Origin: Methylococcaceae bacterium UBA4132
Lineage (GTDB): Bacteria > Pseudomonadota > Gammaproteobacteria > Methylococcales > Methylomonadaceae
Assembly: GCA_002380945.1 (NCBI GenBank)
Contig: DFWO01000190.1
Location: 820 to 64,819 of the forward strand
Length of the DNA: 64,000 nucleotides
Direction: 5' to 3'
Within the stretch, counting starts at the first letter, position 1. The number at the start of each line of letters is the position of its first letter. The position numbers and the translations under genes are program-made. The notes beneath the pieces were generated by a model. It did no database searches. It worked only from the letters and a program-made list of their open reading frames with translations, and was not told the origin of the DNA. Shown here one piece after another: positions 2,819 through 20,794 of this stretch.

Positions 2819-5314
2819 TTGAAAAACATTTTTCAGGATGCTTCAATACGCATCAAATTAATATTAATTATCGGTATTGCCGTATTATTGGCATTACTGA
2901 TGGTTGCGTCAGCGATAACTGGCTATGAATATCTAGCACGGCGACAACAAACCGAACAGTCATTATTGGCTGTCGTGAATATTGTTGCATGGAACAGTTC
3001 GGCTGCATTAGCGTTTATGGATAATGAGGTCGCGCAAAAAAATTTGAAAATGTTAGAAACCCAACCTAGTATCGTGGCCGCTTTTTTATATACTCCAAAT
3101 GGTGAAATATTTGCAGAATATACAAAATCGTATCAAGTTGATGATACGTTTAATAATCTGAAAATAATCCAATGGGTAAAAGACAGTTCTTTACTTGATA
3201 TTGAAAGAACAGCTAATATTCCAATACTTGACCGAATAAAGCAAGGGGTTGAAAAAAATCTCGGCTTATCCTCTATACGACACTTACAATCAGGCTATTC
3301 TGAATTAACGTTATACGATCAATATCGGCAAATACATCTGTTGAAGCCTATCTTTATTGATGATGAATTGATAGGCATACTGCATTTGGTTGACAATCAG
3401 CATCACTTGAATGCGTTTTTTTCCAGCTTTTATTCTATTCTGGGTATTATCTTGTTATTTACTTTGTTGGCAACCATGTTAGTCTCAACACGGTTGCAAC
3501 GCATTTTTTCCATGCCTTTACTGAATTTAATGCAAGCGATGAAATCTGTTGCCAACGAGAAAAAATTTACTCGCCAAGTTATCAAAACCAGTAATGACGA
3601 ATTTGGTCAATTAGTCGATGTTTACAATGATATGCTCAGCGAAATTCATCAAAGAGATGAACAATTGGATAAGCAGCGTGAAAATTTAGAAATTCAAGTC
3701 GAAGAACGCACCGTACAATTAACCGATATTAATAACCTATTAAAACAAACGGTAGCCGATGCGTTGACTGCTAAAGAAGAGGCGGAAGCGGCTAACCTTG
3801 CTAAATCGCAGTTTCTGGCGAATATGAGTCATGAAATCAGAACCCCCATGAATGCGGTATTGGGTATGACCGATTTTTTATATGAAAGTAATTTAAATAG
3901 TGAGCAACGTCATTCCATAGAAATTGTACAGCAATCCTCACGATTATTACTGGGGGTCATTAATGATATTTTGGATTTTTCTAAAATTGAATCAGGTAAA
4001 TTGGAGCTAGATGCCCATCCGTTTAATAGTCACACATTAATTAATGATAGTTTTGCTTTATTAGAAACACAGGCAAAAGCTAAATGCTTAAAGTATCGTT
4101 TAGAGTTGGCTGATATACCCGTTATGCTGGTGGGAGATTCCATCAAACTGAGCCAAATATTAACGAATTTACTCAGTAATGCCGTTAAATTTACAGATCA
4201 TGGGCAAGTGATATTAGCCGTTACCAGCCAAGACCTAGTCGACAATAAAACCAGACTGCATATCGCAGTAACTGATACAGGTATTGGCGTTGATAAAGAA
4301 AAACAACTACTGATTTTTGACGCGTTTTCTCAAGTAGATAGCTCCATGACTCGCGCTTTTGGCGGTACAGGACTCGGTTTAGCCATTGCTAAACAATTAG
4401 TGCGTTTAATGCACGGTGAAATTGGTGTGACCAGTGAAGTAAACAAAGGGGCTAGATTCTGGTTTTGGGTTGATTTGGAAAAATCAGCTGTGCCGTCAGT
4501 CAAAACCAACGTTTATTCAGACTGTCAATTTAACGCCAACATTCTCGTTGCCGAAGATTATCTAGCCAATCAAATATTGGTTACACGGTTTCTGGAAAAC
4601 TTTGGTTGTCGCGTTAAGATAGTCAACAACGGCTTGGAGGCCACAGTCGCTGTACAGCAACAAGATTATGATTTAATTTTTATGGATTGCCAGATGCCTA
4701 TCATGGATGGTTATCAAGCGTCTACTGAAATTCGCCGTCTTGAAAGTGAGTCTGGCACAGCAAAGCATATTCCAATTATCGCTCTAACTGCGCACGCCTT
4801 AGCAGGTGATAAAGCAAAATGTTTGAGTGCGGGTATGGATGAATGGGTAACTAAACCGTTTACCCGTAAAGAATTAAATGAAGTATTGCAAAAATGGTTG
4901 CCAGAACAACTCATTATTGTTGGACAGGCTAACACCACTAAAGCAGATACTGCGTCAGATTTACCTGCTATTGATACACAATTTCTCCAGCAAAATTTTG
5001 ATTTGAATAATCCCGATGATTTAGCATTTATAGCTACTTTACAACAAGCCTTTAAAGAAAGTGTCGATCAAACGTTTAGCAGTTTGGAGCTGAGTATTCA
5101 ACAAGGTGATGCTGAACAAATTCGCCAGATGGCGCATGGTTTAAAGTCTATTAGCGGCAACGTTGGTGCGATAAGACTTTCAGCGTTATGCAAAACCATG
5201 GAGCAGGCGGGAAAAACTAAGCAATTAAAAAATGTCAGTCCCTTGTTAAGCCAGATGAAAATTGAATATACAAAAGCACTTGGCGAACTGAACCATATTT
5301 TATCGTCCACATAA
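2819..5314 (+). CDS. Hybrid sensor histidine kinase (TM-HAMP-HisKA-HATPase-REC-HPt)
   Basis: H-box SHEIRTPMN. ATPase boxes [22 protein letters not shown]. Receiver [14 protein letters not shown]...KP. C-terminal HPt [15 protein letters not shown] start as in the ORF track. Confidence 0.9.
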
Positions 5315-5491
5315 GTTTTAAGCCCTCCCTTCGTTGGACAGATTTTAACGTTCAACAGACTCGAAATCCTCCATTAAATTCGATACTTGACTTATGCTTT
5401 ATGCTTTTTATTTTAAGGTATTGTAGACATGATGGCATAGGCGTAAAGTTACCCGCAATTAAAAGTAACTAATCGTGTCTGTGGGGCAAAT

Positions 5492-5854
5492 ATGACCAGA
5501 TCCTCAAAAAAACCTAAAACAGTTTCCAAGAATGACGATGACAATCCGCCGCTATTTAAAGGCGATATACTCGCCAAAGCCATCGTTACCAGCGTTAGCG
5601 TTTCAATCATTAATCACACGGGCAAAGCCGTTTTTAGATCACTTACTAAACACCCACTGATTGTATTTGGGTTAGGTGTAACGACAGGCTATTTTGCACA
5701 TAAATATCGTAAACGTATTGTTAAGGCGGGTAATCGGGTCGCTGATGAAAGCAAACAATTTGTCTTGCGCCAAAAAGAAAATATATTGGATTTTCTTGCT
5801 GAAAATCAAGAGGATGTAGAAGAACAAGGTAGTTCAAAAGAAATAGATAAATAG
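5492..5854 (+). CDS. Hypothetical small protein with one or two hydrophobic segments
   Basis: 120-aa ORF with a charged N- and C-terminus and a central hydrophobic stretch. No recognisable motif. Confidence 0.4.
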   Translation: MTRSSKKPKTVSKNDDDNPPLFKGDILAKAIVTSVSVSIINHTGKAVFRSLTKHPLIVFGLGVTTGYFAHKYRKRIVKAGNRVADESKQFVLRQKENILDFLAENQEDVEEQGSSKEIDK

Positions 5855-5971
5855 TCGAAAACTAAAATTTTCAGATAGTTAAGATAACTGAGAGGCTGAA
5901 ATCTACAATATATTTTAGACTCCTAAAAAATTTGTAACACCATGTTTTGAAATCTATAAACAAGGAGAATT

Positions 5972-8446
5972 ATGATGACTACTGCTACTGCAAACATCGC
6001 TGTTTTAAAACATGGCAAAGTAGTACATGACACCAGCCGACGTGTGCGTATCATTGCCCCTGTATTAAATAAAGATTTAGAACGTGCCTATGTATTAGAA
6101 ATATTATTAAAAAAACGTTCAGGTATTTTAAAAGTACGCACGGTGGTAGATATTGCCTCGTTGACCATTCATTTTGATCCAGTCTTATTGCCTAAAAATA
6201 ATTTACTTACACTGGTGGATGCCTTGTTAGGTAATTTGGGTCAGAAAAAAATCAGTAACACAGACACCTCATTAGCGGATGAAGAGCTGGATAGTACCAT
6301 CGCCCCACAAGAATTTAATCTAGCGATTGAAGGTATGAGCTGTGTTTCCTGTGCGTTATTAATAGAAATGTTGTTGCGTAAAGATAGGCGAATTATCGCT
6401 GCCCATGTTAATTTTGCTACCGAACAAGCTACCATCATTGGCACAATAGATGAAGACACCTTGTCTGCACTCATTGAAAAAATAGGCTATCGGGCGCACA
6501 GCTTTGATACCTTGGCACAACGTAAATTGCTGATTGAACGTGAACAACAGCGTTTAAGTGCTGCCAAAAGACGCGCCGTACTCGCTGTAGCTCTCAGTGT
6601 GCCAGTCATGCTGATTGGTATGGCAGCACCGACTTCTCGATTTTGGCATTGGGCGCAACACGCATTGGCTACGCCCATTGTATTGTGGGCGGGTCAACCT
6701 TTTTTTACTAAAGCCTATAAACTGGCGCGTCAAGGTGCTACCAATATGGACAGCTTGATTGCTTTAGGAGTAGGTTCATCTTATGGTTACAGTGTGTTTT
6801 CCTTGTTAGCAGGTCAACGCGGACTGTATTTTGATTCGGCAACAGGCATTATCTCTTTTGTACTCATCGGACGTTATCTGGAAGAAAAAGCCAAAGGTAA
6901 AGCCCACGAATCCATACGCTCATTGGTCGATTTACAACCGCAATACGCGAGTGTTTTGCAAGGTGAACACGAAATTATTGTTCCTGTCGAACAACTGGCA
7001 TTAGACGATGTAGTATTAATTCGTGCAGGTGAAAAAATTCCCACCGACGGCATCGTCATTGCAGGCTTATCGACGGTGGATGAATCTATGGTGACGGGTG
7101 AAAGTCTACCCGTCATCAGAGATATTGGACAGCGTTTAGTGGGGGGCTGTATCAATGGCAATGGCGTATTGACCATGCGCGTCACGGCAGTTGGCAAAGA
7201 TACTGTGCTTGCCAATATCATACACATGGTCGATCAAGCGCAATCTTCCAAATTGCCCATTCAACAAACTGTTGATCGTATTTCGGCAGTGTTCGTTCCT
7301 AGTGTTATTGCGGTAGCGACACTCACTTTTGCAAGCTGGATGGCAGTTGGCGTGGGTTTTAGAATCGCTTTTAGTAATGCAGTGGCGGTGTTATTGATTG
7401 CTTGCCCTTGCTCCTTAGGATTGGCGACACCGATGGCAATTATGGTGGGAACAGGACGGTCAGCGCAACGCGGTGTTTATATTCGTAATGGTGAAAGCCT
7501 AGAAATGGCTGCCAAAATGACCACGATAGTGTTTGATAAAACAGGAACGATTACCGAAGGTAAACCACGCGTCACCGATTTTATTCAAGTTTCTGACGAG
7601 AGCGAACAACACATTTTGGCTCTACTCGCTTCAGCTGAATTTGACTCAGAACATTTTCTGGCTAAAACCATTGTGGCTTATGCGTTGGAGCGCGATATTA
7701 AACTGCTGAAAATCGACAGCTTCAATGCAACTATTGGCAACGGTATTGTTGCTGAAGTAGACGGCAATACTATTTTGATGGGTAATCAAACGTGGTTGGA
7801 ACAATCGGGCGTGCAGATAAACACCTTATGCGAACAAGCAGCGACTTTTGCTAAACAAGGTAAAACGCCTATATTTGCCAGCATTAATGGTAATGCAGTC
7901 GCATTATTCGGTATTGCTGACCAGCCGCGCCGCAATGCCAAAACTGCGATAGCGCGTTTGCTCAAGATGGGTGTTACACCATTAATGGTGACGGGTGATA
8001 CCGAACAAACCGCGCGTTATGTAGCAGAACAAGTCGGTATCTCCGCCGTGATTGCCAATGCTCATCCAGAGCGGAAACTGGAAATTGTTCGTGAATTACA
8101 AGCACAAGGTAAAAAGGTTGGCATGATAGGCGATGGTATTAATGATGCGCCCGCTATTGCCGCCGCCGATGTCAGTTTTGCCATTGGTACAGGCACCGAT
8201 GTTGCTATTGAAACAGCCGACTTAACGCTAGTAAGTGGTGATATTAGCAAAGTCGTCGATGTGATGGAATTGAGCGATGCCACGTTGCGTATTATCAAGC
8301 AAAATTTGTTTTGGGCATTGGGTTACAACACCATTGCGATACCTGTCGCGGCTATGGGTAGACTCAATCCGATGATTGCCTCAGCCGCGATGGCGTTTAG
8401 TTCTATTTCCGTCGTACTGAATTCTTTACGATTACAACATAAATAA
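5972..8446 (+). CDS. copA: Cu(I)-translocating P1B-type ATPase (CopA-like) with an extra Cys-less N-terminal domain
   Basis: HMA motif GMSCVSCA, TGES, membrane CPC (IACPCSLGLATP), DKTGT, GDGINDAP. TM YN (LGYN) and MxxSS (MAFSS) match the P1B-1 signature. Confidence 0.9.
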   Translation: MMTTATANIAVLKHGKVVHDTSRRVRIIAPVLNKDLERAYVLEILLKKRSGILKVRTVVDIASLTIHFDPVLLPKNNLLTLVDALLGNLGQKKISNTDTSLADEELDSTIAPQEFNLAIEGMSCVSCALLIEMLLRKDRRIIAAHVNFATEQATIIGTIDEDTLSALIEKIGYRAHSFDTLAQRKLLIEREQQRLSAAKRRAVLAVALSVPVMLIGMAAPTSRFWHWAQHALATPIVLWAGQPFFTKAYKLARQGATNMDSLIALGVGSSYGYSVFSLLAGQRGLYFDSATGIISFVLIGRYLEEKAKGKAHESIRSLVDLQPQYASVLQGEHEIIVPVEQLALDDVVLIRAGEKIPTDGIVIAGLSTVDESMVTGESLPVIRDIGQRLVGGCINGNGVLTMRVTAVGKDTVLANIIHMVDQAQSSKLPIQQTVDRISAVFVPSVIAVATLTFASWMAVGVGFRIAFSNAVAVLLIACPCSLGLATPMAIMVGTGRSAQRGVYIRNGESLEMAAKMTTIVFDKTGTITEGKPRVTDFIQVSDESEQHILALLASAEFDSEHFLAKTIVAYALERDIKLLKIDSFNATIGNGIVAEVDGNTILMGNQTWLEQSGVQINTLCEQAATFAKQGKTPIFASINGNAVALFGIADQPRRNAKTAIARLLKMGVTPLMVTGDTEQTARYVAEQVGISAVIANAHPERKLEIVRELQAQGKKVGMIGDGINDAPAIAAADVSFAIGTGTDVAIETADLTLVSGDISKVVDVMELSDATLRIIKQNLFWALGYNTIAIPVAAMGRLNPMIASAAMAFSSISVVLNSLRLQHK

Positions 8447-8459
8447 ATTCATCAACTTT

Positions 8460-9743
8460 ATGACTACTAAGGCACACCCAGTAACCCATTCTTTATTCAG
8501 CATGTTTAAAAAAATTGCCGCGATTATAGTCGCGCTGAGCGGCATTGCTTTCATTTTATGGCTAGATAGCTGGTTTATGAATCATACCGATATGCCTAAA
8601 ATCGGTGCTGATATGAGCTATGGCTTATTGCTATTAATTGGTTTTTTAACCAGTTTTCATTGTGTTGGTATGTGTGGACCATTGATTCTAGGCTATACCG
8701 CGAAAACGGCGGCTAACGGTAATAAAACGCATCACCCGCATTTGCTTTACGGTATCGGCAAAACGCTATCCTATACCAGTATTGGTGCAATGTTTGGCGC
8801 GTTCGGCTCAATTATTGCCTTTACGCCTTATACACAAGGCGCGGTAGGGGTTGCGGCGGGCATCTTTTTGTTTTTGTTTGGACTGCACATGTTAAATGTC
8901 TTTCCTGCACTGAATCATTTTCAGTTCAAACCGCCTGCTTTTTTGACGCGCTTTATCAGTAAGGAATACCGCAAACACGGTAATCCCTTTGTCATCGGTT
9001 TGTTAAATGGGCTAATGATTATTTGTGGACCATTACAAGCGATGTATGTGATGGCGGCGGGAACGGGGAATTGGTTACAGGGTGCGGCAACTTTGTTTTT
9101 TTTTGGTATTGGAACCCTGCCGTTGTTGATGGGTTTTGGTTTTCTGACCAGTATGCTGTCAGCAAACTTAACGCCTAAGTTATTAAAAGCCTCTGGTTTA
9201 ATTGTCATGGCATTGGGTGTGATTATGCTCAATCGCGGTTTAGCTGTTACAGGAACAGGCGTAGATTTCAATACCATAGTGGCGCGAGTATCGCAAAAAC
9301 TCTCTCCAAAAGGGGCAGAATCGGTGTCTTGCGAATTTGGGCAAAGCATCAGCATGGATGTATTGAAATCAAGTTATTCGCCTAACCAGTTCATCATTCG
9401 CAAAGGCATTCCATTACAATGGGAAATTAATGTGAAAGAACTTAATGAATGCAATAAAGAAATTGTCATTCCAGACTATGATATGAAAATACCCTTAAAA
9501 AAAGGCAAACAGACGGTTGAATTTACGCCTAAAGAAGTGGGCGTTATACCGTGGAGTTGTTGGATGGGTATGATACCTGGCACGTTTATCGTGGTAGAAG
9601 ACACGCCTGCCGACAAACCCGCAGAGCTTGCCGATAGTTCAAACTCTGAACAAGTTGATTTAGTCGAGCAAAGTCAGCAATGGCTACAAGAATTAAAACA
9701 ATTTTGGCAATCTTTATATTCACGAGGTGAGGATAAGCCATGA
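8460..9743 (+). CDS. DsbD_2/TauE-like polytopic membrane protein fused to a C-terminal cupredoxin-like domain
   Basis: Membrane motifs SFHCVGMCGPL and MIICGPLQA. C-terminal beta-rich domain ends in WSCWMGMIPGTFIVVE (C-x-M-x-M copper-site-like). Starts 13 nt after copA. Confidence 0.75.
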   Translation: MTTKAHPVTHSLFSMFKKIAAIIVALSGIAFILWLDSWFMNHTDMPKIGADMSYGLLLLIGFLTSFHCVGMCGPLILGYTAKTAANGNKTHHPHLLYGIGKTLSYTSIGAMFGAFGSIIAFTPYTQGAVGVAAGIFLFLFGLHMLNVFPALNHFQFKPPAFLTRFISKEYRKHGNPFVIGLLNGLMIICGPLQAMYVMAAGTGNWLQGAATLFFFGIGTLPLLMGFGFLTSMLSANLTPKLLKASGLIVMALGVIMLNRGLAVTGTGVDFNTIVARVSQKLSPKGAESVSCEFGQSISMDVLKSSYSPNQFIIRKGIPLQWEINVKELNECNKEIVIPDYDMKIPLKKGKQTVEFTPKEVGVIPWSCWMGMIPGTFIVVEDTPADKPAELADSSNSEQVDLVEQSQQWLQELKQFWQSLYSRGEDKP

Positions 9744-10048
9744 GAAAATCGTCTTTATTTTTTTACAGTTTGATAACTGAGTTGATGGTGTTGAGCCTGC
9801 TTCTATTATATGGTGCTATAGATAAAAACACCCAACAGGAAAGCCTGCAAGAAAAAGCCATGTTGGTTGAAACGCTACAATTAACGGATTTATGTCTATT
9901 TACTGAAGCACGTTATACGCGGCATTTATCACAAGCGGATTTAAATACCGCGTTTCAAGATCACCCTGTGTCGCTAGAGCATTTTCCGTCTGGCTCATTC
10001 ACTCAGCCGTCGTTTACAGGAATGGGTAGTCATGAACAGTTGGATTGA
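9740..10048 (+). CDS. Small membrane-anchored hypothetical protein
   Basis: ATGA start/stop overlap with the upstream gene. N-terminal TM helix. Overlaps the FtsX-type gene by 17 nt. Confidence 0.5.
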   Translation: MRKSSLFFYSLITELMVLSLLLLYGAIDKNTQQESLQEKAMLVETLQLTDLCLFTEARYTRHLSQADLNTAFQDHPVSLEHFPSGSFTQPSFTGMGSHEQLD

Positions 10049-11276
10049 AAAGCAACGCTATATTATTGATTTCACTTTATCCTCCTTGTTGCGTAGAAAA
10101 GTGAAAAACATAGGATTGTTAGTCTTATATACGTTGATTGTATTTATTTTGGCATCCATGATGTTTTTCACGCATTCCATTAAGCGTGAAGCCGCCTTGA
10201 TTTTAAAAGGTGCGCCAGAAGTTGTCGTGCAGAAAATTGTTGCGGGTCGGCACGATTTAATGCCTATCGAATATTTGGACACCATTAAAAAAATTCGTGG
10301 CGTGGCAACAGCCGCTCCTCGTTTGTGGGGCTACTATTACGACAATCTAGTCAAAGCCAATTACACCTTGTTAGTACCGCCCACTCAGACAACTACCACC
10401 AATATAAGCAGAACCACGGTAGTTGAAAACGAGCCAAACTCACAGAGCGTCGATTTAACCAAACCGCTATACGAAGTAAACGGTACGAAACTGGAATCTG
10501 GCACGATTATTATTGGTAATGGCGTGGCTAGATTACGTCAAATTGCTAAGGGTGATTACATGCCGTTTTTGAGCTTTGATGGCAACGTGATGAATCTCAA
10601 AGTGGTTGATACCTTGTCTGCACAATCCGAATTAGTCTCTTCCGACTTATTGCTAATCACTGAGGAAGATTTTAGAAAACTGTTTGGTATAGATAAGCAG
10701 TTTGTCACCGATATGACCGTAGTGGTCAATAATCCCAGCGAAATGCCAACAGTGGCAGCAAAAATCAAAAAACGTTTACCGCAAGCCCGTCCGATTATTC
10801 GAGATGAAATACTGCGTACTTACGAATCTATTTTCAACTGGCGCGGCGGCATGATGATCGTCATTTTTTCAGCGGCAGTGTTAGCGTTTGTGATTTTTGC
10901 GTGGGATAAAGCGTCGGGGTTGAGTGCAGGTGAGCGGCGCGAAATCGGCATATTAAAAGCCGTCGGTTGGGAAACATCGGATGTGATTCAAATGAAATTT
11001 TGGGAAGGTGCGATTATTTCTCTGACCGCTTTTTTTAGCGGTGTAATTTTAGCCTATATTCATGTGTTCTTTATGGGATCGCCTGTGTTTGAACCTGCTT
11101 TAAAAGGATGGTCGGCTTTATATCCTAATTTTTCGCTTACCCCGTTTGTCAATATCGAACAGCTTACCACGTTATTTTTTCTAACTGTCTTGCCTTACAC
11201 AGTCGCAACCATCGTGCCGATTTGGCGGGCGGCAACCATAGACCCCGATTCTGCGATGCGTTTTACTGGAGATTAG
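10032..11276 (+). CDS. FtsX/MacB-type (type VII) ABC transporter permease
   Basis: N-terminal TM, roughly 230-aa extracytoplasmic domain, and C-terminal FtsX bundle (GILKAVGWETSDVIQMKFWEGAIISL). Confidence 0.85.
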   Translation: MNSWIEKQRYIIDFTLSSLLRRKVKNIGLLVLYTLIVFILASMMFFTHSIKREAALILKGAPEVVVQKIVAGRHDLMPIEYLDTIKKIRGVATAAPRLWGYYYDNLVKANYTLLVPPTQTTTTNISRTTVVENEPNSQSVDLTKPLYEVNGTKLESGTIIIGNGVARLRQIAKGDYMPFLSFDGNVMNLKVVDTLSAQSELVSSDLLLITEEDFRKLFGIDKQFVTDMTVVVNNPSEMPTVAAKIKKRLPQARPIIRDEILRTYESIFNWRGGMMIVIFSAAVLAFVIFAWDKASGLSAGERREIGILKAVGWETSDVIQMKFWEGAIISLTAFFSGVILAYIHVFFMGSPVFEPALKGWSALYPNFSLTPFVNIEQLTTLFFLTVLPYTVATIVPIWRAATIDPDSAMRFTGD

Positions 11277-11279
11277 CGA

Positions 11280-11951
11280 ATGATAGAGCTACACGGTATT
11301 AGAAAAGTTTTCAATGCAGGCAATCCGAGTGAATTTACCGCCATTAACGGTGCTAATTTACAAATTGCTGAAAACCAAATCACAGTGTTAAAAGGACCTA
11401 GCGGTTCTGGCAAAACCACGCTATTAAGCATAGTGGGGTGTATGAGTAGACCGACAGCAGGGCGCGTACATTTAAACGGGCGAGAAATTACCAGTTTACC
11501 TGAGCGTTTTTTAACTGATATTCGTCGTAAAACCTTTGGTTTTATTTTTCAACAACCTAATCTGATTAAAGGTATTTCGGTATTAGAAAATGTGATGTTG
11601 CCCGCTTATCCGCTAGGCGAAAAGCGTTCACAGTTGAGAATAAAGGCATTGGCAGGACTGGATGAGCTGAATATAGGTAACAAATCACATTCCAACGTGG
11701 AATGGCTATCGGGCGGTGAAGCGCAACGGGCTTCTATTGTGCGTGCCTTGATTAATAACCCGTCCATTATTATTGCTGATGAACCCACCGCGCATTTGGA
11801 CAGTAAATTATCGTATCGCTTCATGGAAATCATCGAAAAATTTAAAGCCGAAGGTAAAACCGTGATTATCACTAGCCATGATCCGTTGGTTTACGATGCG
11901 GCTATCGTAGACAGAGTAATTACCATGCGTGATGGGCAAATTGAGGTTTAA
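11280..11951 (+). CDS. ABC transporter ATP-binding protein (LolD/MacB-type)
   Basis: Walker A GPSGSGKTT, signature LSGGEAQR, Walker B IIIADEPT. Confidence 0.92.
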   Translation: MIELHGIRKVFNAGNPSEFTAINGANLQIAENQITVLKGPSGSGKTTLLSIVGCMSRPTAGRVHLNGREITSLPERFLTDIRRKTFGFIFQQPNLIKGISVLENVMLPAYPLGEKRSQLRIKALAGLDELNIGNKSHSNVEWLSGGEAQRASIVRALINNPSIIIADEPTAHLDSKLSYRFMEIIEKFKAEGKTVIITSHDPLVYDAAIVDRVITMRDGQIEV

Positions 11952-11956
11952 ACAAC

Positions 11957-12952
11957 ATGGTTCTGCATCCTACCGTCATTGCTAATTTGTTAGCGGCTTA
12001 TATTGCCAGCTTTATGTTGGTTTATGCGGCGTTTTATGGGGCGCAAATACTGAAATATTGGAATATTCAAAGCGGTGAGGAATTACAGCTTATTCTGGAA
12101 CGTAAAACGTATTTAATCTCCACGTTATTGGGTTATACCTTCGGGTTGCAACTGTTATCGTTGTTTTTGTATATCTTTACTGCTGATAGTTTAACGCCGT
12201 TATTTGTTGGCGCGATGTGTGCGGCGGGTACGTTAAATGTCAGTCATTTTGGTTATAGTGTGCTGGTATTGAAAATCCTCAATTTCATACTGGCAGGATT
12301 GTGGTTAGTTTTGAATTATGCCGACAATCAGGGTTATGACTATCCGCTAATTAAAAAAAAGTACCTACTATTAGCCATTATCGCACCCTTTATTGTGATT
12401 GAGACGCTATTGGAAAGTGCTTATTTTCTAGGCATGAGAGCCGATGTCATTACCTCTTGCTGTGGTAGCTTGTTTAGCAGTGAAAATGCCGCAGGCTTAG
12501 GTTCAGAAATCGCTTCTTTACCTGCTCTGCCGATGTTATGGACTTTTTATGGTGTGATGTTCTGCACCTTAGCGACTGGGCTATATTTTTATATCAAGGG
12601 TAAAGGCGGCTATTGTTATGCGGTACTGAGCCTAGTGATGTTTATTATCGCGCTGGTTTCGGTGGTGTCTTTTATCTCGCTGTATATCTATGAATTGCCC
12701 ACGCATCATTGTCCTTTCTGCATCATCATGGAAGATTATCACTACATCGGTTATTTGCTGTATTTACTATTATTTGGCGCGGTTGTATCGGGTATTGGCG
12801 TAGGTATATTGCTACCTTTTCGGCAAGTAGACAGTCTTAAATTTATGTTGACTGGTTTTATCGGCAAACTCGCACTCAGCTCGGTGCTGTTGTATCTGGC
12901 GTTTACTGCCTTAGTCAGCTATCAAATCGTTTTTTCTAATCTAATTATGTGA
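11957..12952 (+). CDS. Cys-rich polytopic membrane protein of unknown family (about 8 TM)
   Basis: Hydrophobic throughout. Cys motifs GAMCAAGT, ITSCCGS, THHCPFC. Lies 5 nt after the ATPase gene and overlaps the next gene. Confidence 0.7.
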   Translation: MVLHPTVIANLLAAYIASFMLVYAAFYGAQILKYWNIQSGEELQLILERKTYLISTLLGYTFGLQLLSLFLYIFTADSLTPLFVGAMCAAGTLNVSHFGYSVLVLKILNFILAGLWLVLNYADNQGYDYPLIKKKYLLLAIIAPFIVIETLLESAYFLGMRADVITSCCGSLFSSENAAGLGSEIASLPALPMLWTFYGVMFCTLATGLYFYIKGKGGYCYAVLSLVMFIIALVSVVSFISLYIYELPTHHCPFCIIMEDYHYIGYLLYLLLFGAVVSGIGVGILLPFRQVDSLKFMLTGFIGKLALSSVLLYLAFTALVSYQIVFSNLIM

Positions 12953-13449
12953 TGACGACCATGAAAACTCATACAACACGCTACTTGGCACTGTTTATCC
13001 TGCTTCTTAGTATCAATGTCAGCTACGGCGATGAACCCACCATAGAAATTAAAAAAACCGACCGCTGCCCTGTCTGCGGAATGTTTGTTTATAAATATCC
13101 CAAGTGGGTGGCACAAATTATCTTTCAGGATGGCGGGTATTATTTTTATGACGGGGCGAAAGATATGTTTAAGCATTATTTCGACACCGCAAAATACACG
13201 GCTGGCAAATCGGCGGCAAGCATTAAAAATATCTATGTCACTGATTATTACGATGTGGAATTGATAGATGGAAAAACCGCTTTTTATGTGTTGGGTTCAG
13301 ACATATTAGGTCCTATGGGGCATGAATTATTGCCGTTTAAGAATAAGGAATCAGCACAGGAATTTTTAGAAGATCATCAAGGCAAAAGCATTGTTAATTT
13401 TACAGATGTAACGCCAGCCATGATTGAATCGTTGGATAAGCGGCAATGA
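12949..13449 (+). CDS. nosL: NosL-family periplasmic copper-chaperone-like protein
   Basis: Signal peptide. DRCPVCGMFV...YVTDYY...YVLGSDILGPMGHELLPF...A.EF pattern parallels the NosL pattern CHVCGM...YVHDM...YVVGS..GAMG. Confidence 0.8.
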   Translation: MMTTMKTHTTRYLALFILLLSINVSYGDEPTIEIKKTDRCPVCGMFVYKYPKWVAQIIFQDGGYYFYDGAKDMFKHYFDTAKYTAGKSAASIKNIYVTDYYDVELIDGKTAFYVLGSDILGPMGHELLPFKNKESAQEFLEDHQGKSIVNFTDVTPAMIESLDKRQ

Positions 13450-13937
13450 AAATCGTATTACTGCTAATGGCTATACTAATCGGTGCTTGCCATCAGCAAA
13501 CGGGCTTACAAGTTGGTGATGAAATACCCAAGGTCACGCTGAGCGACAGACAAGGAAAAACGCTGAATTTGCCCAAGGATATGCAGGGTAAAGTGGTGTT
13601 GCTGCATTTTTGGAATATGGATTGTCATTTTTGTGATAAAAAAAATCTGTTGTTGTTAGAACCGCTGTACCAAAAATATAAAGCGCAGGCTTTTGTTCCC
13701 ATTGCCGTTAATGTCGGACTTGTCGATAAAAACGATGAACGTTGGAAAGAGTTTGCGGGCTTAACATATCCGATGTTAGTCGATGAGCGCGGTCTGATTG
13801 CCAAACAATTTAACGTGATTGGTTTGCCAACCACGTTTGTTATTGACGGCAAAGGCATTATGCAGAAAAAACTGACGGGTGAAGCACCAATTGACGAATA
13901 TGAAAAACTTTTTAGTTCAATTTTGATAAGGAGATGA
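13446..13937 (+). CDS. TlpA/ResA-like thioredoxin-fold lipoprotein with an atypical CHFC active site
   Basis: Lipobox LIGAC. HFWNMDCHFC sits in the canonical FWxxWCxxC position. GLPTTFVID cis-Pro loop. ATGA overlap with nosL. Confidence 0.8.
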   Translation: MKIVLLLMAILIGACHQQTGLQVGDEIPKVTLSDRQGKTLNLPKDMQGKVVLLHFWNMDCHFCDKKNLLLLEPLYQKYKAQAFVPIAVNVGLVDKNDERWKEFAGLTYPMLVDERGLIAKQFNVIGLPTTFVIDGKGIMQKKLTGEAPIDEYEKLFSSILIRR

Positions 13938-15331
13938 CAATGAAAACACAATCTAAATTGTGGTTGCTACTTGTACTATTCCCGCTTTTTCTAGTGTCGA
14001 GTCAGGTAGCAGCAGAAGAACGAGCGAGTTGTCGGGTTTGTGGTATGTATATTGATCAATACCAAAAAACCGCAGCTGAATTAACTTATAACGATGGTAA
14101 AAAAGAATACACTTGTGGCGTTGCTTGTATGTTACGCGAAGTTGAAGAGGAGGGAGGTATCTCCGCTTTTAAATCGGTAAAAGTCCATGACTGGGTGTCT
14201 GGCAAATTAGTGAATGCTGAAACAGCCACTTATGTGATGGGCAGTAAAGTTATTCCCGACATGGTACCTAACTACATCGCATTTGCTAATCGTGATGAAG
14301 CAGAAGCCTTTGTCGCAAAAGAAGGCGGTGAAATTATCGACTTTAATATCGCTTATCAAGACGTGTCGCCCGTTGGTACCACCGCGCCGTTTCGTTTACG
14401 CACCGCAGTCACTCCAGGTAAAGGCAACTTTAGCGTCGGTATGGTCTATGGCTATAATGAAAAAGATCGTATTAAAAACGGTTCTAATGGCATAAATCCT
14501 AATACGTTTATGAACAATAACGCCGCACAACCTAAAGCACCTAAGCAAATGGTGGTAAATCAACAAGCCTTGACGTTTAACTATTCACCGACCGATGACC
14601 TCGCATTATTTATGAACGTACCTTGGTTTGAAAAACAGATGAATACGCTGGTGCGGACTGGTAAACAGATTAATGATACGTCCGCAGAAAAAAATGGCAT
14701 AGGCGATATTACTTTAGAAGGTCGCTATAACGTTTGGCGTAGTACGCGTTGGGATAAATTTGCGACTGTGCTGTTAGGCACATCATTGCCTTCAGGTCAC
14801 TTTGATGGTAATCGGGATTCATCAGGCGCACTTCAAGCCCCTGGATTACAGTTAGGTAAGGGTGTCGCAACTTTTACGGGCGGTCTTTTATATTCGGAAC
14901 GCTGGAAAGATTGGTGGTTGCACACGTCTGCACTTTATACCGTCAATCCTGAAAACAGCGATGATTTTGCCTTCGGTGATGTTGCCTCAGTCGGTATGGC
15001 TTTACACTACACACCAAACTATGACTGGATGGTCGGTGTTGAAATGGATGCCAGCTACACAGAGAAAAATCAAGACAAGGGCATCAAAGTAGGCAACAGT
15101 GGTGGTACGGCGGTTAATCTAGCGTTTGTTTCCGACTATCGTTTTCTCAACGCGTTAGGCGGCAATTTTAAATTGCGCGGCTCGATTGGTCTGCCAGTTT
15201 ATGAGAATTTGAACTCCAATCCGATGGTGAACGCAAAGAAACAACCGTTTACCCAAGTTCAACTGGGTGATGGTTTTTTTGCTAATGTCGCGCTAGTGTG
15301 GACGTTCCGTGACGCACCAGAAAGTTATTAA
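13934..15331 (+). CDS. Fusion of an N-terminal NosL-like domain to a C-terminal outer-membrane beta-barrel (MetA/phenol-degradation-like)
   Basis: Signal peptide. CRVCGMYI...CGVAC...YVMGSKV...AFANRDEAEAF (NosL-like). About 300 aa of alternating amphipathic strands with aromatic girdle residues follow. ATGA overlap upstream. Confidence 0.7.
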   Translation: MTMKTQSKLWLLLVLFPLFLVSSQVAAEERASCRVCGMYIDQYQKTAAELTYNDGKKEYTCGVACMLREVEEEGGISAFKSVKVHDWVSGKLVNAETATYVMGSKVIPDMVPNYIAFANRDEAEAFVAKEGGEIIDFNIAYQDVSPVGTTAPFRLRTAVTPGKGNFSVGMVYGYNEKDRIKNGSNGINPNTFMNNNAAQPKAPKQMVVNQQALTFNYSPTDDLALFMNVPWFEKQMNTLVRTGKQINDTSAEKNGIGDITLEGRYNVWRSTRWDKFATVLLGTSLPSGHFDGNRDSSGALQAPGLQLGKGVATFTGGLLYSERWKDWWLHTSALYTVNPENSDDFAFGDVASVGMALHYTPNYDWMVGVEMDASYTEKNQDKGIKVGNSGGTAVNLAFVSDYRFLNALGGNFKLRGSIGLPVYENLNSNPMVNAKKQPFTQVQLGDGFFANVALVWTFRDAPESY

Positions 15332-15341
15332 TTAACTTAAA

Positions 15342-15376
15342 CTTCCGAGGTTTTAAAAGCCTCGGAGGTTTATTCT
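15342..15376 (+). terminator. Rho-independent terminator closing the copper operon
   Basis: CTTCCGAGG-ttttaaaag-CCTCGGAGG hairpin followed by TTTATTCTT. Confidence 0.7.
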
Positions 15377-15392
15377 TAAAGGATTATTTTTT

Positions 15393-15848
15393 ATGCGTAA
15401 GCTAAACACATTAAATATTTTATTGGTTCTGATTTGTTGCTTAGCGACATTGGCTTATGCAGACGATTCACAAGAACCGTTACCACCTGATGAGGCGTTT
15501 GCTTTGACCGCTACAGTGCCATCAAGCGATATGCTACGGCTGAGTTGGCAAATCGCTGACGGCTATTATTTGTATCAACACAAATTCGCTATTAGCTCAC
15601 AAACTCCGACTATAAACCTTGCTAAACCGTCTTTTCCTGCCGCAGAAAATAAAAATGATCCATTTTTTGGCACGGTAGCGATTTATCGTCAGCAGCTTAC
15701 ACTGGATATCCCATTAAAACGGCAAGCGGCAACAGACAATTCTGTGACCATAGACGTGACTTTTCAAGGTTGTGCGGATAAAGGAATTTGTTACTTGCCC
15801 ATTCATAAAACCATGAGCTTTGATTTAGCGAATAATGACACCCACTAA
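15393..15848 (+). CDS. Stand-alone DsbD N-terminal (alpha) domain protein
   Basis: Signal peptide. PPDEAFALTA...WQIADGYYLYQHKF...FQGCADKGICYLP matches the DsbD-alpha fold signature with its Cys pair. No beta or gamma domain follows. Confidence 0.75.
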   Translation: MRKLNTLNILLVLICCLATLAYADDSQEPLPPDEAFALTATVPSSDMLRLSWQIADGYYLYQHKFAISSQTPTINLAKPSFPAAENKNDPFFGTVAIYRQQLTLDIPLKRQAATDNSVTIDVTFQGCADKGICYLPIHKTMSFDLANNDTH

Positions 15849-15864
15849 AATTGAACAGCTTTTA

Positions 15865-17130
15865 TTATACGTCTTCCATCTTTACAGAACTTAATAAACC
15901 CAAGTGTTTAGCATCAATTTCAATTAGCAATTCACTTGCACCAAAATCGTCGATTTTTTCCTCTAAAATTTGCGCACAAGCAGATAGTTTTGCGCGAATA
16001 TCACCTTGATTAGCATTTAAGTAACAGCGTTTTTTAAGTTTAGAACTGGCAAATTGTTCCGTTAGCACTTGATAAAGTAACTCAAGTCCCAGCCCTGTTT
16101 CAGCCGAAATCCAAACGCGTATCGCATTACCTGCATCGTCACGATCAATATGCGGCTGAACATTTTCCAATAAATCAATTTTATTAAACACTTCTACACG
16201 CCTGATTTTATCCGCACCTATTTCTTCCAAAACCAAATGAACTTGGTGCATGATTTCATCACGATCTTCAGCATTGGCATCAATAACGTGTAGTAATAAT
16301 TCGGCTTCACTGGCTTCTTGCAAGGTTGATTTGAATGCCGCAACTAATTCATGCGGTAAATGACGAATAAAACCGACCGTATCAGCTAACACAATGTCGG
16401 TATTATTGGGCAACACACAACTGCGTAACGTCGGATCTAAGGTAGCGAATAATTGATCTGCAACATAAATCCCCGCGCCTGTTATCGTGTTGAATAGTGT
16501 TGATTTGCCCGCATTGGTATAACCGACTAAGGAAACCGTCGGCACTTCGGCTTTTTTGCGTTGACTACGCCCTTGATGACGTTGCTTATCGACTTTATCC
16601 AAGCGTTGCTGAATTTGCTTAATGCGTACGGCTAATAAACGGCGATCGGTTTCTAATTGGGTTTCGCCAGGACCGCGTAAACCAATACCGCCTTTTTGCC
16701 GTTCCAAATGCGTCCAACCGCGTACTAAGCGTGTGGATAAGTGCTTTAATTGTGCTAATTCAACTTGTAATTTACCTTCAAACGATTGAGCGCGTTGGGC
16801 GAAAATATCCAGAATTAAACCGTTTCTATCCACCACCCGTACGCCTAAAAATTTTTCCAGATTTCTTTCCTGACTGGGCGATAACGGATGATTGAACAAC
16901 ACCACATCGGCTTCATATTGTTCAATCATGGCTTTAAGTTCGTCTAGTTTGCCTATGCCGATAAAATATTTGGGATCAGGACGTTGACGGCTACCTGTGA
17001 CAACATAAACAGGATCAGTGCCAGCGGATTTAGCTAACTCTTTTAATTCAAAAAGATTTTCCTGTTCATAACGAAAGCTTATGTGAACGAGAATCGCTCG
17101 TTCACCTGAATCGGGGGGGCGATCAAACAC
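15865..17130 (-). CDS. hflX: GTPase HflX
   Basis: G1 GYTNAGKSTLFN, G3 DTVGF, G4 NKID. The GTG at 17130 has a GGAG 6 nt upstream. The ORF track's alternative GTG is at 17142. Confidence 0.9.
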   Translation of the reverse strand: MFDRPPDSGERAILVHISFRYEQENLFELKELAKSAGTDPVYVVTGSRQRPDPKYFIGIGKLDELKAMIEQYEADVVLFNHPLSPSQERNLEKFLGVRVVDRNGLILDIFAQRAQSFEGKLQVELAQLKHLSTRLVRGWTHLERQKGGIGLRGPGETQLETDRRLLAVRIKQIQQRLDKVDKQRHQGRSQRKKAEVPTVSLVGYTNAGKSTLFNTITGAGIYVADQLFATLDPTLRSCVLPNNTDIVLADTVGFIRHLPHELVAAFKSTLQEASEAELLLHVIDANAEDRDEIMHQVHLVLEEIGADKIRRVEVFNKIDLLENVQPHIDRDDAGNAIRVWISAETGLGLELLYQVLTEQFASSKLKKRCYLNANQGDIRAKLSACAQILEEKIDDFGASELLIEIDAKHLGLLSSVKMEDV

Positions 17131-17273
17131 ACAACACTCCACTACGGTAATTAGTTAAGCGCGTTAACGCGCTTTTAATAGGTTTTACTGGCTTTTTAAA
17201 CGAGCGAAGACGGTTAGGCAAAAAAGTCTGCTATGGTCTGATACTGGGGTATTTTTAGACAAATCAAGCGTGC

Positions 17274-17513
17274 TTATTCTTCGCTGGTTTCATCATCACG
17301 CGTGATTTTTACGGCCTTACTAGGCACTATCGTTGAGATAGCGTGCTTATAGACCATTTGGCTAACGGTATTTTTTAGCATAATGACATACTGATCAAAC
17401 GAATCGACTTTCCCCTGCAACTTTATGCCGTTAACAAGAAAAATTGACACAGGTGTATGTTCTTTTCTAAGTGCATTTAGAAAATTATCCTGTAAATTTT
17501 GACCTTTTGACAT
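17274..17513 (-). CDS. hfq: RNA chaperone Hfq
   Basis: [73 protein letters not shown] upstream of the ATG at 17513. The longer ORF-track extension is not supported. Confidence 0.95.
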
Positions 17514-17711
17514 CCGATTTCTCCTTATTGTTGGTTTTTGTTTGCTTAAGATAACTGCAATTAACGACCAATACAAATTATTATCATGGCTTCTATTTGA
17601 GTAATGTAAAGCAGGTATGGCTACGCAACCCATAAAAATCAATGGCAAGGCATATTTTTCTATTTTTTAATAATAGGCATGGGACGTGCTACTGCTATTT
17701 TTATTACGAAA

Positions 17712-17758
17712 ACACTATATATTGTGCTATTATGAAAAAAAATATCTACATATAGACA
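17712..17758 (+). promoter_or_regulatory. Tandem NrdR-box-like operators upstream of nrdJa
   Basis: ACACTATATATTGTGC (17712-17727) matches 15 of 16 positions of the palindrome ACACwATATATwGTGT. A weaker second box has core CTACATATAG (17746-17755). The two cores are offset by 31 bp. Confidence 0.6.
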
Positions 17759-17839
17759 TTAATCGGTAATTGCCTAACATCGCTAACCTGCTGATTTATG
17801 GTTTATTTTCACATAAAAACTGCTTAGGAAAATTCATCA

Positions 17840-19990: not shown

Positions 19991-20091
19991 AGACCTTACA
20001 TCACAACGTTTTTATACAAATTGTTTAGTTAAACAAGATTTTATATGGTGGTTGATTGTTTAAGAATTTGGTTTCAATTAAGAGGTGTTAA

Positions 20092-20301
20092 ATGACAATT
20101 GCAGAACACAGATTAACTATAATTCATCAAATTGAAGAATTATCCGAAGAATCACTGATTGAATTGGAAAAAATCATTGCCAAATTAAAAGCTAAACAGA
20201 AAAGTGATGATATTTCTGATTTAGGTGGTTTTTTTAAAAACAATACCATTGTATTAACGAATGAAGAACTTTGTAAGCCCGTTGATTTCAACGAGGAATA
20301 A
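20092..20301 (+). CDS. Putative type II antitoxin (partner of the PIN toxin)
   Basis: 69-aa acidic helical ORF that ends 2 nt before the PIN gene. Confidence 0.55.
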   Translation: MTIAEHRLTIIHQIEELSEESLIELEKIIAKLKAKQKSDDISDLGGFFKNNTIVLTNEELCKPVDFNEE

Positions 20302-20303
20302 GC

Positions 20304-20696: not shown

Positions 20697-20749
20697 TGGT
20701 ATTAGAACTGACAGATTTTAAAACCTTGTTAATTAGAACTTGAAAGAAT

Positions 20750-20780
20750 GTTGGGGTTCGCAAAGCTCATCCCAACGTAC
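20750..20780. repeat. REP-like hairpin GTTGGGG-n13-CCCAAC-GTAC
   Basis: Inverted repeat read directly from the sequence. Intergenic. Confidence 0.6.
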
Positions 20781-20794
20781 GCGGTACTTTAAAT

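Follow-up and report, generated by a model that had tools for sequence, protein, structure and literature searches.

We analysed a stretch of 64,000 nucleotides from Methylococcaceae bacterium UBA4132 (GenBank assembly GCA_002380945.1, contig DFWO01000190.1, positions 820 to 64,819 of the forward strand), referred to below as the window. According to the ORF list of the 64-kb window, nine open reading frames (ORFs) lie in series on the + strand between positions 5972 and 15331. Among the encoded proteins are a copper ATPase, an ATP-binding cassette (ABC) permease and ATPase, two NosL domains and an eight-helix membrane protein without a Pfam match, and five of the genes recur together in other genomes as what appears to be a periplasmic Cu(I) hand-over system. 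The block and the two elements that follow it are made up as follows:

5972-8446, + strand: gene 1, CopA, a P1B-1 Cu(I)-exporting P-type ATPase (profiles and motifs)
8460-9743, + strand: gene 2, a seven-helix DsbD_2/CcdA-like membrane protein with a C-terminal CupA-type domain (profiles)
9740-10048, + strand: gene 3, a 102-residue single-pass protein, predicted to have its N-terminus inside and its C-terminal part in the periplasm
10032-11276, + strand: gene 4, an FtsX-type permease of a type VII ABC system, LolC/MacB-like (profiles)
11280-11951, + strand: gene 5, an ABC ATPase of the MacB/LolD/FtsE group (profiles and motifs)
11957-12952, + strand: gene 6, a 331-residue eight-helix membrane protein, the signature gene of the module (AlphaFold2 model and alignments)
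12949-13449, + strand, GTG start: gene 7, a soluble periplasmic NosL of type A (NosL profile, signal peptide)
13446-13937, + strand: gene 8, a TlpA/ResA-like thioredoxin-fold lipoprotein (lipobox LIGAC, active site C60-H-F-C63)
13934-15331, + strand: gene 9, a NosL of type B fused to an outer-membrane beta-barrel (profiles, AlphaFold2, Foldseek)
15338-15372, + strand: a hairpin with a 16-bp stem (inverted repeat 15338-15354 / 15356-15372)
15393-15848, + strand: a tenth gene, a stand-alone DsbD_N (alpha) domain with a signal peptide (DsbD_N 112 bits)

A gap of 13 nt follows copA; further on, the reading frames overlap by 4 nt at 9740, 12949, 13446 and 13934 and by 17 nt at 10032, and they are separated by 3 nt at 11280 and by 5 nt at 11957. 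The initial annotation, which was drawn from the letters and their open reading frames, had described nine translationally coupled genes, and the ORF list agrees with it to the base. Signalling genes lie upstream of the block, and hflX, hfq and ribonucleotide reductase genes lie downstream. The organism belongs to the Methylococcales, and its window proteins are most similar to homologs in Methylobacter, Methylovulum, Methylicorpusculum and Methylomonas.

Relatives of the eight-helix protein were collected by scanning one genome per GTDB species with a 12-sequence alignment of the family, and at least 574 were found in these species-representative genomes. Gene content was then counted by tblastn of the window proteins (E <= 1e-4 for the thioredoxin-like protein) on the 80 best of the at least 574 loci, with the 51 loci for which both flanks were available (49-80% identity) as the denominator. 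The small protein, FtsX and the ATPase lie beside the eight-helix gene in 50/51 loci; the small protein adjoins FtsX, and the ATPase gene directly precedes the eight-helix gene, in 50 of the 51 each. NosL is found there in at least 44, a figure that rises when the second NosL type is included, and all five core genes are present in 43. Counts for the remaining genes were 17/51 for the TlpA-like protein, 10/51 for the NosL::barrel fusion, 6/51 for DsbD_N, 5/51 for DsbD_2 and 4/51 for CopA. We used the tblastn counts throughout, as a census by ORF calling and hmmsearch undercounted small genes (spurious antisense ORFs, GC-rich bins). Judged from these neighbourhoods, the conserved unit is NosL, a single-pass protein of ~100 residues, FtsX, the ATPase and an eight-helix protein of ~330 residues, often with a TlpA-like reductase. 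The barrel fusion, DsbD_N, CopA and the DsbD_2-CupA protein are additions found mainly in Methylococcales and a few other lineages. The co-conservation that the initial annotation had expected of its block in other genomes is therefore borne out for the core, and not for nine genes as a unit, given the counts for CopA and DsbD_2. Its description of an envelope-spanning system fits this genome, in which the NosL::barrel fusion is present, and does not extend to a general feature, the fusion being restricted to a subset of lineages.

Carriers of the eight-helix family include Methylococcales, Nitrosomonas communis, Nitrospira, Methylomirabilis, Aminicenantes and a Dongiaceae bin, and, among anaerobes, many Thermodesulfobacteriota (Syntrophobacterales, Desulfobulbaceae, Geobacter) and Nitrospirota/Thermodesulfovibrionales. 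The proposed tie to copper-hungry methanotrophs does not hold up, since most of the retrieved carriers are anaerobic Thermodesulfobacteriota and Nitrospirota. Gene order varies with lineage. The anaerobes have NosL, small protein, FtsX, ATPase and eight-helix protein; Methylococcales, N. communis and a Nitrospira defluvii bin have small protein, FtsX, ATPase, eight-helix protein, NosL, thioredoxin-like protein and NosL::barrel; and a subfamily at 31% identity in Desulfobulbales, which includes the isolate Desulfosediminicola flagellatus, has thioredoxin-like protein, NosL, small protein, FtsX, ATPase and eight-helix protein. The opposite strand carries copA and the gene for a 120-residue protein in Methylomonas montana, in Methylomicrobium lacus and in three bins of Methylococcales, which makes the run of nine genes in one direction a peculiarity of this genome. 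A tblastn search of 72,556 plasmids for carriage of the module returned nothing.

Compared protein by protein, the betaproteobacterial copy in N. communis (L001/L002) shares 52-83% identity with its gammaproteobacterial counterpart, 83% for the ATPase and 75% for the eight-helix protein. It stands beside LTXXQ, OEP, CusB/CusF, CusA fragments and a DDE transposase, which suggests lateral transfer within a copper island.

The eight-helix protein carries three cysteine-bearing motifs, M87-C88, C168-C169 and H250-H251-C252-P-F-C255, each on a separate loop. Across 70 sequences from the retrieved loci, lysine and arginine average 8.9 on loops 1-2, 3-4, 5-6 and 7-8 and 3.6 on the cysteine-bearing loops and the termini, so that positive-inside counts predict a periplasmic location for all three cysteine-bearing loops. 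M87, C88, C168, C169, H250 and C252 are all invariant in the same 70 sequences. A more diverse alignment of 26 sequences still shows C88 and C252 as invariant, with conservation of at least 90% for C168, C169 and H250, and has aspartate in place of the second cysteine of CPFC in 7 of the 26 members. The family is large (942 clusters at 50% identity with E <= 1e-3), and neither gene 6 nor 25 of its relatives matched any Pfam family, VKOR, DsbB and DsbD included, even at E <= 1. The AlphaFold2 model has eight helices (predicted local distance difference test score, pLDDT, 90.8; predicted template modelling score 0.89), and a Foldseek search of the PDB with this model found nothing better than E = 0.34. 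A VKOR/DsbB-like identity was rejected as the main reading on the basis of the Pfam result in the 26 members, the lack of VKOR or DsbB among the Foldseek matches and the fact that the CxxC is not invariant. An internal 4+4 duplication was likewise rejected (hhalign of the two halves, P = 0.02-0.15, not significant). Inspection by eye of the longer representatives P0121, P0122 and P0321 for fusions to a partner showed terminal extensions or insertions and no sign of a second domain.

The permease encoded by gene 4 has a first transmembrane helix (TM1), a large periplasmic domain and TM2-4. It matches FtsX PF02687 with 34.6 bits (gathering score 25.5) and lolCE TIGR02212 with 50.1 bits over residues 129-410, and both this match (50.1 versus 362) and that to LolC NF008076 (26.9 versus 473) lie below the LolC/LolE equivalog level. 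Its closest solved structures are LolC 7ARH, LolF, YtrF and MacB; the alignment with 7ARH, over 138-411, is a remote one (E = 0.006), and orthologs of gene 4 give weak MacB_PCD matches. The ATPase of gene 5 scores 103 bits with ABC_tran and retains Walker A, signature, Walker B and H-loop. Its best NCBIfam matches are MacB (169.9), LolD (168.8) and FtsE (167.5), all under the equivalog cutoffs, so that the assignment to this group holds at subfamily level only. Together, genes 4 and 5 have what defines the type VII ABC superfamily, namely an FtsX C-terminal domain, four helices, a periplasmic domain and a cognate ATPase, and the FtsX assignment made initially is supported by both the PF02687 match and the LolC/MacB architecture. 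Only one Cys, Met or His is conserved on the periplasmic side of the permease, namely H344, at the outer end of TM3, and the two conserved methionines, M321 and M409, lie outside the periplasmic domain. As no such residue is conserved within it, the periplasmic domain probably acts on protein partners, which is how type VII ABC systems operate.

A Thr/Asn-rich insertion of ~35-40 residues occupies residues ~105-150 of this periplasmic domain in Methylococcales and Nitrosomonas; the FtsX orthologs of anaerobes do not have it (~379 versus 414 residues).

Gene 3, which has no Pfam or NCBIfam match, is marked by the invariant motifs L-x-D-L-x-L-x-TEA-x-Y-TRH and EHFPSG, with E56, H62, D67 and H81 among its invariant residues. 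C52 is replaced by alanine in the distant subfamily.

Both NosL domains called initially are clear profile matches. Gene 7 scores 119.1 bits with NosL PF05573 (gathering score 24), and its alignment with the NosL of Pseudomonas stutzeri (7OSF, E = 4e-7) pairs both CxxCGM and GxMG. The N-terminal domain of gene 9 scores 70.3 bits (7OSF at E = 6e-4) and contains C33xxC36GM38, C61x3C65 and M110. [quoted passage not shown] The corresponding residues in gene 7, C40-x-x-C43-G-M45 and M123, are the ligands expected by homology and are 98-100% conserved in 68 sequences. For the equivalents of the three strict ligands (C43/M45/M123 of gene 7, C36/M38/M110 of gene 9), conservation among homologs is 92-100%. 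Neither protein has the outer-membrane lipoprotein anchor of NosL: the signal peptide of gene 7 ends ...NVSYG/DEP without a lipobox cysteine, as read from its sequence, and gene 9 would be held by its fused barrel. Gene 9 starts with a signal peptide and ends on an aromatic residue, and its barrel matches Phenol_MetA_deg PF13557 with 29.8 bits (gathering score 22). The AlphaFold2 model, of moderate confidence (pLDDT 71), has 12-14 strands from residue 165. Foldseek places it with the COG4313 channel 4RL8 (E = 2e-9, TM score 0.69) and with FapF 5O67 (E = 3e-9), so that by profile and by its Pput2725-like barrel, with the model at pLDDT 71, gene 9 belongs with the COG4313/Phenol_MetA_deg channels and the proposed fusion of NosL to an outer-membrane barrel stands. 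The same fusion occurs in cultured Methylosarcina, Methylomicrobium, Methylocaldum, Methylicorpusculum, Methylobacter and Methylomonas.

Across the loci, two types of NosL can be told apart. Type A (46 copies) resembles gene 7, has CxxCGM only and adjoins the small-protein gene, and type B (21 copies) resembles the N-terminal domain of gene 9 and has CxxCGM together with Cx3C. In at least 17 loci of anaerobes, type B is the gene immediately upstream of type A, and in Methylococcales it is the type carried on the barrel fusion. As the pair recurs in anaerobes and type B sits on the barrel here, the pair of NosL proteins would be old and the fusion to the outer membrane later.

In the anaerobes, type B has a conserved, helical tail rich in Met, Lys and His (YEDMYxDTKMIRxKRKMMK...MEHKH), which may be an extra copper-binding or docking element. 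Tailed copies occur in loci L020, L022, L026, L027, L040, L041 and others, ~3.1-3.5 kb upstream of the eight-helix gene in the majority of loci and up to ~6.4 kb in the rest.

The additions in this genome combine copper and thiol chemistry. CopA matches TIGR01511 with 571.6 bits (cutoff 397), E1-E2_ATPase with 179 bits and HMA with 33.9 bits. Its N-terminus holds HMA_2-like and HMA (CxxC) domains, and CPC, YN, MxxSS and DKTGT are present in the translation. The score and the CPC, YN and MxxSS motifs assign it to the P1B-1 Cu(I) ATPases, in agreement with the initial call. Gene 2 matches DsbD_2 with 151 bits and DsbD_TM with 30.1 bits (threshold 27.1), and its motifs HCxGMCGP in TM1 and ICGP in TM4 supply the one cysteine each in the first and fourth core helices that is typical of the DsbD/CcdA superfamily. 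The DsbD_2 part of the earlier 'DsbD_2/TauE-like channel' is thus well founded, and the TauE-like part found no profile support. The C-terminal domain of gene 2 had been called a periplasmic cupredoxin. Cupredoxin_1 itself stays below threshold (18.9 bits, gathering score 27), and a profile of the domain searched against the PDB recovers Streptococcus pneumoniae CupA (4F2E/2MRY, E = 3e-12) and the N-terminal domain of pneumococcal CopA (4F2F, E = 1.5e-8), with the binuclear-site Cu(I) ligands C...CxMxM aligned with CupA. By this homology the domain is a CupA-type Cu(I) chaperone domain and not an electron-transfer cupredoxin. The distribution of lysine and arginine over the loops predicts that it is periplasmic, and it follows a seven-helix domain, unlike the cytoplasmic CupA with its one N-terminal anchor helix. 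The ortholog in Methylocaldum sp. GT1TLB (L086, 4078-5493) is an HMA, DsbD_2 and CupA-like cupredoxin fusion, and in N. communis the CupA-like domain is a separate protein of 131 residues. These two arrangements favour a metal-handling role of gene 2 over a purely redox one.

In the Methylocaldum ortholog the metal-binding domains flank the membrane domain on both sides; just upstream of it, the opposite strand encodes CutA1 and a full-length DsbD with a thioredoxin.

Gene 8 is, as first annotated, a thioredoxin-like lipoprotein with a CHFC active site behind a LIGAC lipobox (AhpC-TSA 72 bits, Redoxin 61 bits, ResA NF002854 86 bits). Its CxxC is invariant in 23 sequences, and homologs lie within the module in the 17 loci counted above and in both loci of the 31%-identity subfamily. 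The DsbD_N gene stands directly after the hairpin and abuts hflX, and it is co-conserved with the block in Methylococcales. By its family, the product would be a domain for thiol-disulfide relay in the periplasm. The position after the block is taken by a DsbD_N of 155 residues in M. montana and by full-length DsbD in Methylobacter (L004, 13800-15581) and M. lacus (L087, 11493-13256).

Neighbouring genes place the module in a copper context. Clustering of the flanking ORFs in the loci that yielded ORFs gave as recurrent neighbours CusA (25 loci), CusB with YHS and HMBD domains (19 loci), multicopper-oxidase-like proteins (11 loci), YtkA/FixH-like proteins (9 loci) and full-length DsbD (5 loci). 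Locus L020 has a run of NosL, a Met-rich protein, a multicopper oxidase and a thioredoxin-like protein, and in the Nitrospirae bin L073 CopA, a thioredoxin-like protein and DsbD_2 lie directly ahead of the module. No nosZ, nosD, nosR or nosY was found among the window ORFs of at least 220 residues that were scanned (four ORFs of 224-247 residues lay outside the scan), which is in keeping with the earlier statement that the window has none, and the scanned representatives of recurrent neighbour families include no nos or mer proteins. A nosL flanked by nosZ, nosD and nosF/nosY, the mark of a nos gene cluster, is accordingly not seen in the scanned ORFs or in these representatives.

On balance, we think it probable that the block is a composite around an uncharacterised ATP-driven machine that hands over Cu(I) in the periplasm, with outward flow as the favoured direction. 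The protein families, their conserved ligands, the co-conservation and the copper context are the observations from which we propose the role of ATP, the steps of hand-over, the redox maintenance and the direction. In this scheme, the eight-helix protein would hold Cu(I) very tightly at a site made of thiolate and imidazole ligands, and binding and hydrolysis of ATP would cause the periplasmic domain of FtsX to deform this site or its partners. Ligand exchange would then move Cu(I) between the membrane site and NosL-A, and NosL-A could exchange it with NosL-B (type B). In this methanotroph, the relay would reach as far as the outer membrane by way of NosL-B on its COG4313/FapF-like channel. 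The TlpA-like lipoprotein and DsbD_N would maintain the cysteine ligands in the reduced state despite the oxic periplasm, and a connection to the Cu(I) of the cytoplasm would be made by CopA and the DsbD_2-CupA protein. Judging from conserved residues, metal may be carried by the periplasmic cluster of the eight-helix protein, by the histidines and acidic residues that are invariant in the small protein, and by the NosL proteins. Flow of Cu(I) from the surface of the inner membrane to the outside is slightly favoured by analogy, because the layout resembles LolCDE-LolA-LolB, because of the behaviour of type VII systems and because copper-efflux genes are neighbours. Every characterised type VII ABC system known to us works away from the inner membrane. 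The thiophilic-metal trafficking role put forward at the outset remains the best reading, with copper as the most likely, putative metal and outward flow as a putative direction.

Several observations weigh against this proposal. Neither the 26- nor the 70-sequence alignment shows conserved soft ligands in the cytoplasmic half of the eight-helix protein, and for this reason the protein is probably not a through-membrane copper channel, which bears on where its copper would come from. As FtsX has no conserved metal ligand, any coupling would be indirect. The identity of the metal is based on homology of NosL, CupA and CopA and on neighbouring genes, and in some loci (D. flagellatus, L085) no copper or other metal genes are close by. 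The set of loci was picked by similarity to the eight-helix protein and represents mostly the closer half of the family. Vicinal cysteine pairs are typical of mercury transporters and a hallmark of MerT/MerF. In the one characterised NosL system, copper passes from NosA/NosL to NosDFY to NosZ, which is inward to a target and contrary to the outward direction. Finally, S. denitrificans NosL binds Zn(II) as well (PMC8457098).

In a bolder form of the proposal, the eight-helix protein would be the first member of a class of Cu(I)-binding membrane proteins, and with the single-pass protein, a type VII ABC system and the two NosL types it would make up the first ATP-driven, Lol-like metal relay across the envelope. 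Cu(I) would be pulled mechanically out of a thiolate site at the inner membrane, travel on soluble NosL and pass to a NosL-gated channel in the outer membrane. We regard this as possible and somewhat doubtful.

The rival that survives best reverses the flow. Copper would be supplied from the barrel to NosL-B and NosL-A, and the ABC system would hand it to a target, which could be the eight-helix protein itself as an importer or membrane cuproprotein, or else a multicopper oxidase, NirK, particulate methane monooxygenase or ammonia monooxygenase (pMMO/AMO) or an oxidase. The only characterised pairing of NosL with an ABC mechanotransducer loads a cuproenzyme, its outer-membrane tether resembles gene 9, and COG4313 channels, to which gene 9 is structurally matched, are thought to act in uptake. 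Multicopper-oxidase-like neighbours (11 loci) and carriers that possess pMMO/AMO (Methylococcales, Nitrosomonas, Methylomirabilis) would likewise suit metallation, and classical copper-resistance operons also hold parts of an uptake type, such as CopCD. However, there is no single co-conserved target, most carriers are anaerobes without pMMO/AMO, and the barrel is missing from most loci. The neighbourhood is dominated by the efflux genes CusAB and CopA, and the type VII ABC systems we know of act outward. We therefore consider supply unlikely.

Cargo other than copper, such as Ag(I), Hg(II), Zn/Cd or sulfur/polysulfide, would make the copper genes members of general soft-metal islands. The Zn(II) bound by S. 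denitrificans NosL, the structural relation of NosL to MerB with its TRASH-like CxxC...Cx3C motif, the resemblance of the vicinal Cys-Cys pair to MerT/MerF and the many carriers from sulfidic, anoxic habitats all point that way. Set against them are the strict retention of the Cys, Met and Met ligands for Cu(I) in NosL, neighbours specific for Cu/Ag (CusAB, 1B-1 CopA, multicopper oxidases, YtkA, CupA-like domains) and a neighbourhood census that contained no mer genes, which leave this explanation improbable.

The five periplasm-facing cysteines of the eight-helix protein, CPFC included, raise the question of whether it is a thiol-disulfide oxidoreductase, analogous to DsbB/VKOR or CcdA, that serves the TlpA-like protein or the CxxC of NosL in a module concerned mainly with redox maintenance. 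The frequent TlpA-like gene, the DsbD or DsbD_N that adjoins in Methylococcales, and one UniRef homolog named 'Vitamin K epoxide reductase domain-containing' would agree with this. Yet the aspartate found at the second cysteine of CPFC in 7/26 members leaves no canonical CxxC, none of the 26 matches VKOR, DsbB or DsbD in Pfam at E <= 1, and VKOR, DsbB and CcdA structures are all lacking among the Foldseek matches. A CcdA-type relay would need a conserved cytoplasm-facing cysteine, of which there is none, and the thioredoxin-like gene was detected in just 17/51 loci at E <= 1e-4, so that we hold this role to be quite improbable. An accessory function for nitrous oxide (N2O) reductase, suggested by the public annotation of gene 9 homologs and by the Pfam NosL matches, is contradicted by the evidence and barely tenable, as the scanned window ORFs contain no nosZ, nosD, nosR or nosY, the scanned representatives of neighbour families contain no nos proteins, and the ABC system is of FtsX and not of NosY type. 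NosL homologs have been noted outside nos clusters in the structural work on NosL (PMC8457098).

The proposed Cu(I) hand-over machine shares elements with several known systems, of which NosL with NosDFY comes nearest in its logic. As in NosL-NosDFY, a chaperone of the NosL family with Cys/Met/Met ligands is encoded with an ABC ATPase and permease pair, the ABC system would be expected to couple conformationally in the periplasm without transport of a solute, and one NosL is tethered to the outer membrane. Unlike the nos system, the block lacks NosZ, NosD, NosR and NosX in the scanned ORFs, its permease is of the FtsX/type VII kind instead of the six-helix NosY, and the eight-helix Cys/His protein and the single-pass protein stand in place of the periplasmic copper carrier NosD. 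It also has two NosL types, of which NosL-A is soluble and no lipoprotein, and NosL-B is fused to a barrel in place of a lipid anchor.

The LolC/MacB architecture of the permease and the LolD/MacB-like ATPase are shared with Lol and with other type VII systems (MacAB-TolC, HrtBA, FtsEX), and a soluble carrier, NosL-A, with a homologous partner at the outer membrane, NosL-B::barrel, recalls LolA and LolB. The cargo is presumably a metal ion, in contrast to lipoprotein, peptide or haem, and the small and eight-helix proteins are two extra membrane subunits. There is no HlyD or OEP domain in the nine genes, as MacAB-TolC would have, and the CusB and OEP genes of other loci belong to Cus sets of the resistance-nodulation-division (RND) type.

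Gene 2 recalls the S. pneumoniae CupA-CopA pair, in that its C-terminal domain is homologous, C...CxMxM is kept and copA lies beside it. It differs in being fused to a seven-helix DsbD_2 protein with a predicted periplasmic orientation, where CupA is cytoplasmic on a one-helix anchor, and CopA here has HMA-type N-terminal domains where the pneumococcal one has cupredoxin-type domains. CupA has been described as limited to a few streptococci (PMC7558416).

DsbD_N, a CcdA-like domain with cysteines in TM1 and TM4 and a TlpA/ResA-like lipoprotein in a copper context are reminiscent of DsbD/CcdA-TlpA and of ScsBCD; Scs systems confer copper tolerance. Unlike in DsbD and Scs, the DsbD-like parts are split over genes 2, 8 and 10 and there is no ScsA or ScsC; the domain scan of the block found no DsbA/DsbG-like gene, with no Scs-specific profile used. 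The DsbD_2 part differs further in its HCxGMC and terminal metal-binding domains, so that metal transport would fit at least as well as electron transfer. MerP-MerT offers a parallel in a periplasmic CxxC carrier beside a membrane protein with vicinal cysteines, and NosL is structurally related to MerB. Unlike MerP-MerT, the module has no mer genes, a membrane protein of another fold and size (eight helices), an ATP-driven partner and copper-specific neighbours. We would accordingly describe the module as a copper chaperone coupled to an ABC mechanotransducer, with two orphan families and a wide distribution. No description of it was found in the literature searched, an absence that is no proof that none exists, and to this extent its standing as a candidate undescribed system is maintained.

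Periplasmic copper handling in Gram-negative bacteria has so far been ascribed to CopA, CusCFBA, CueO/PcoA, CopCD, CueP and PCuAC/Sco, and to our knowledge NosL is known only as a chaperone of N2O reductase. The present loci indicate that NosL has a second set of partners, at least as widespread, made up of a type VII ABC system, a single-pass protein and an eight-helix protein. Among its carriers are organisms of importance to the cycling of methane, nitrogen and sulfur, such as methanotrophs, oxidisers of ammonia and of nitrite, Methylomirabilis, sulfate reducers and syntrophs. If the proposal is correct, it would add a new ATP-driven mechanism of metal hand-over and tell what two orphan protein families do. 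It would also put right a systematic mislabelling as 'nitrous oxide reductase accessory protein' and give a handle on copper supply and tolerance in organisms with pMMO/AMO. A Lol-like relay would, if real, give the periplasm a third way to dispose of or traffic copper, besides RND pumps of the Cus type and multicopper oxidases. It would need no oxygen, which could explain the abundance of the module in anaerobes.

Directly upstream of copA lies one further conserved gene:

5492-5854, + strand: a 120-residue protein with one central hydrophobic helix

The protein has no Pfam or NCBIfam match. By tblastn its gene adjoins copA on the same strand in L003, L004, L008 and L009; it is on the strand of copA here, in M. 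montana and in three Methylococcales bins (Methylobacter, Methylicorpusculum and one unclassified). In M. lacus (L087) a gene for 120 residues without a Pfam match holds the corresponding position beside copA. The gene is co-conserved with the block in Methylococcales, and its product is probably CopA-associated and peripheral to the module.

A near-perfect 18-bp palindrome, TCTACAATATATTTTAGA, is found at 5902-5919, ~55 nt before the copA start. It was rejected as a conserved operator on account of its absence from orthologous loci. Rfam returned no match at E <= 0.1 across 4500-18000, so that no regulatory RNA was found in that interval. The hairpin after gene 9 is strong, with a free energy of -22.3 kcal/mol (z = -5.1; none of 200 shuffled sequences folded as stably). 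The U-tract that follows its stem is imperfect, UUCUU (the letters read UUUAUUCUU), which is why a rule-based terminator scan did not list it. The terminator proposed at 15342-15376 is thus real as a structure and misplaced by ~4 nt, and the hairpin is a probable intrinsic terminator or attenuator.

At the far end of the window, at a distance of 47 kb from the block, the interval 61658-63993 on the - strand holds a multicopper oxidase gene (Cu-oxidase_2/3, 547 residues, reaching the window end), followed by an ORF of 231 residues without a Pfam family, and this region could be a further piece of the copper handling of the organism. Two patches of low GC content, 20000-22000 (0.30) and 54000-56000 (0.31), stand out from a level of ~0.41 elsewhere. 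One contains a PIN-domain gene (20304-20696) and a 402-residue ORF without a Pfam family (20795-22003), the other a 463-residue ORF without a Pfam family (54513-55904), and both patches may be acquired islands.

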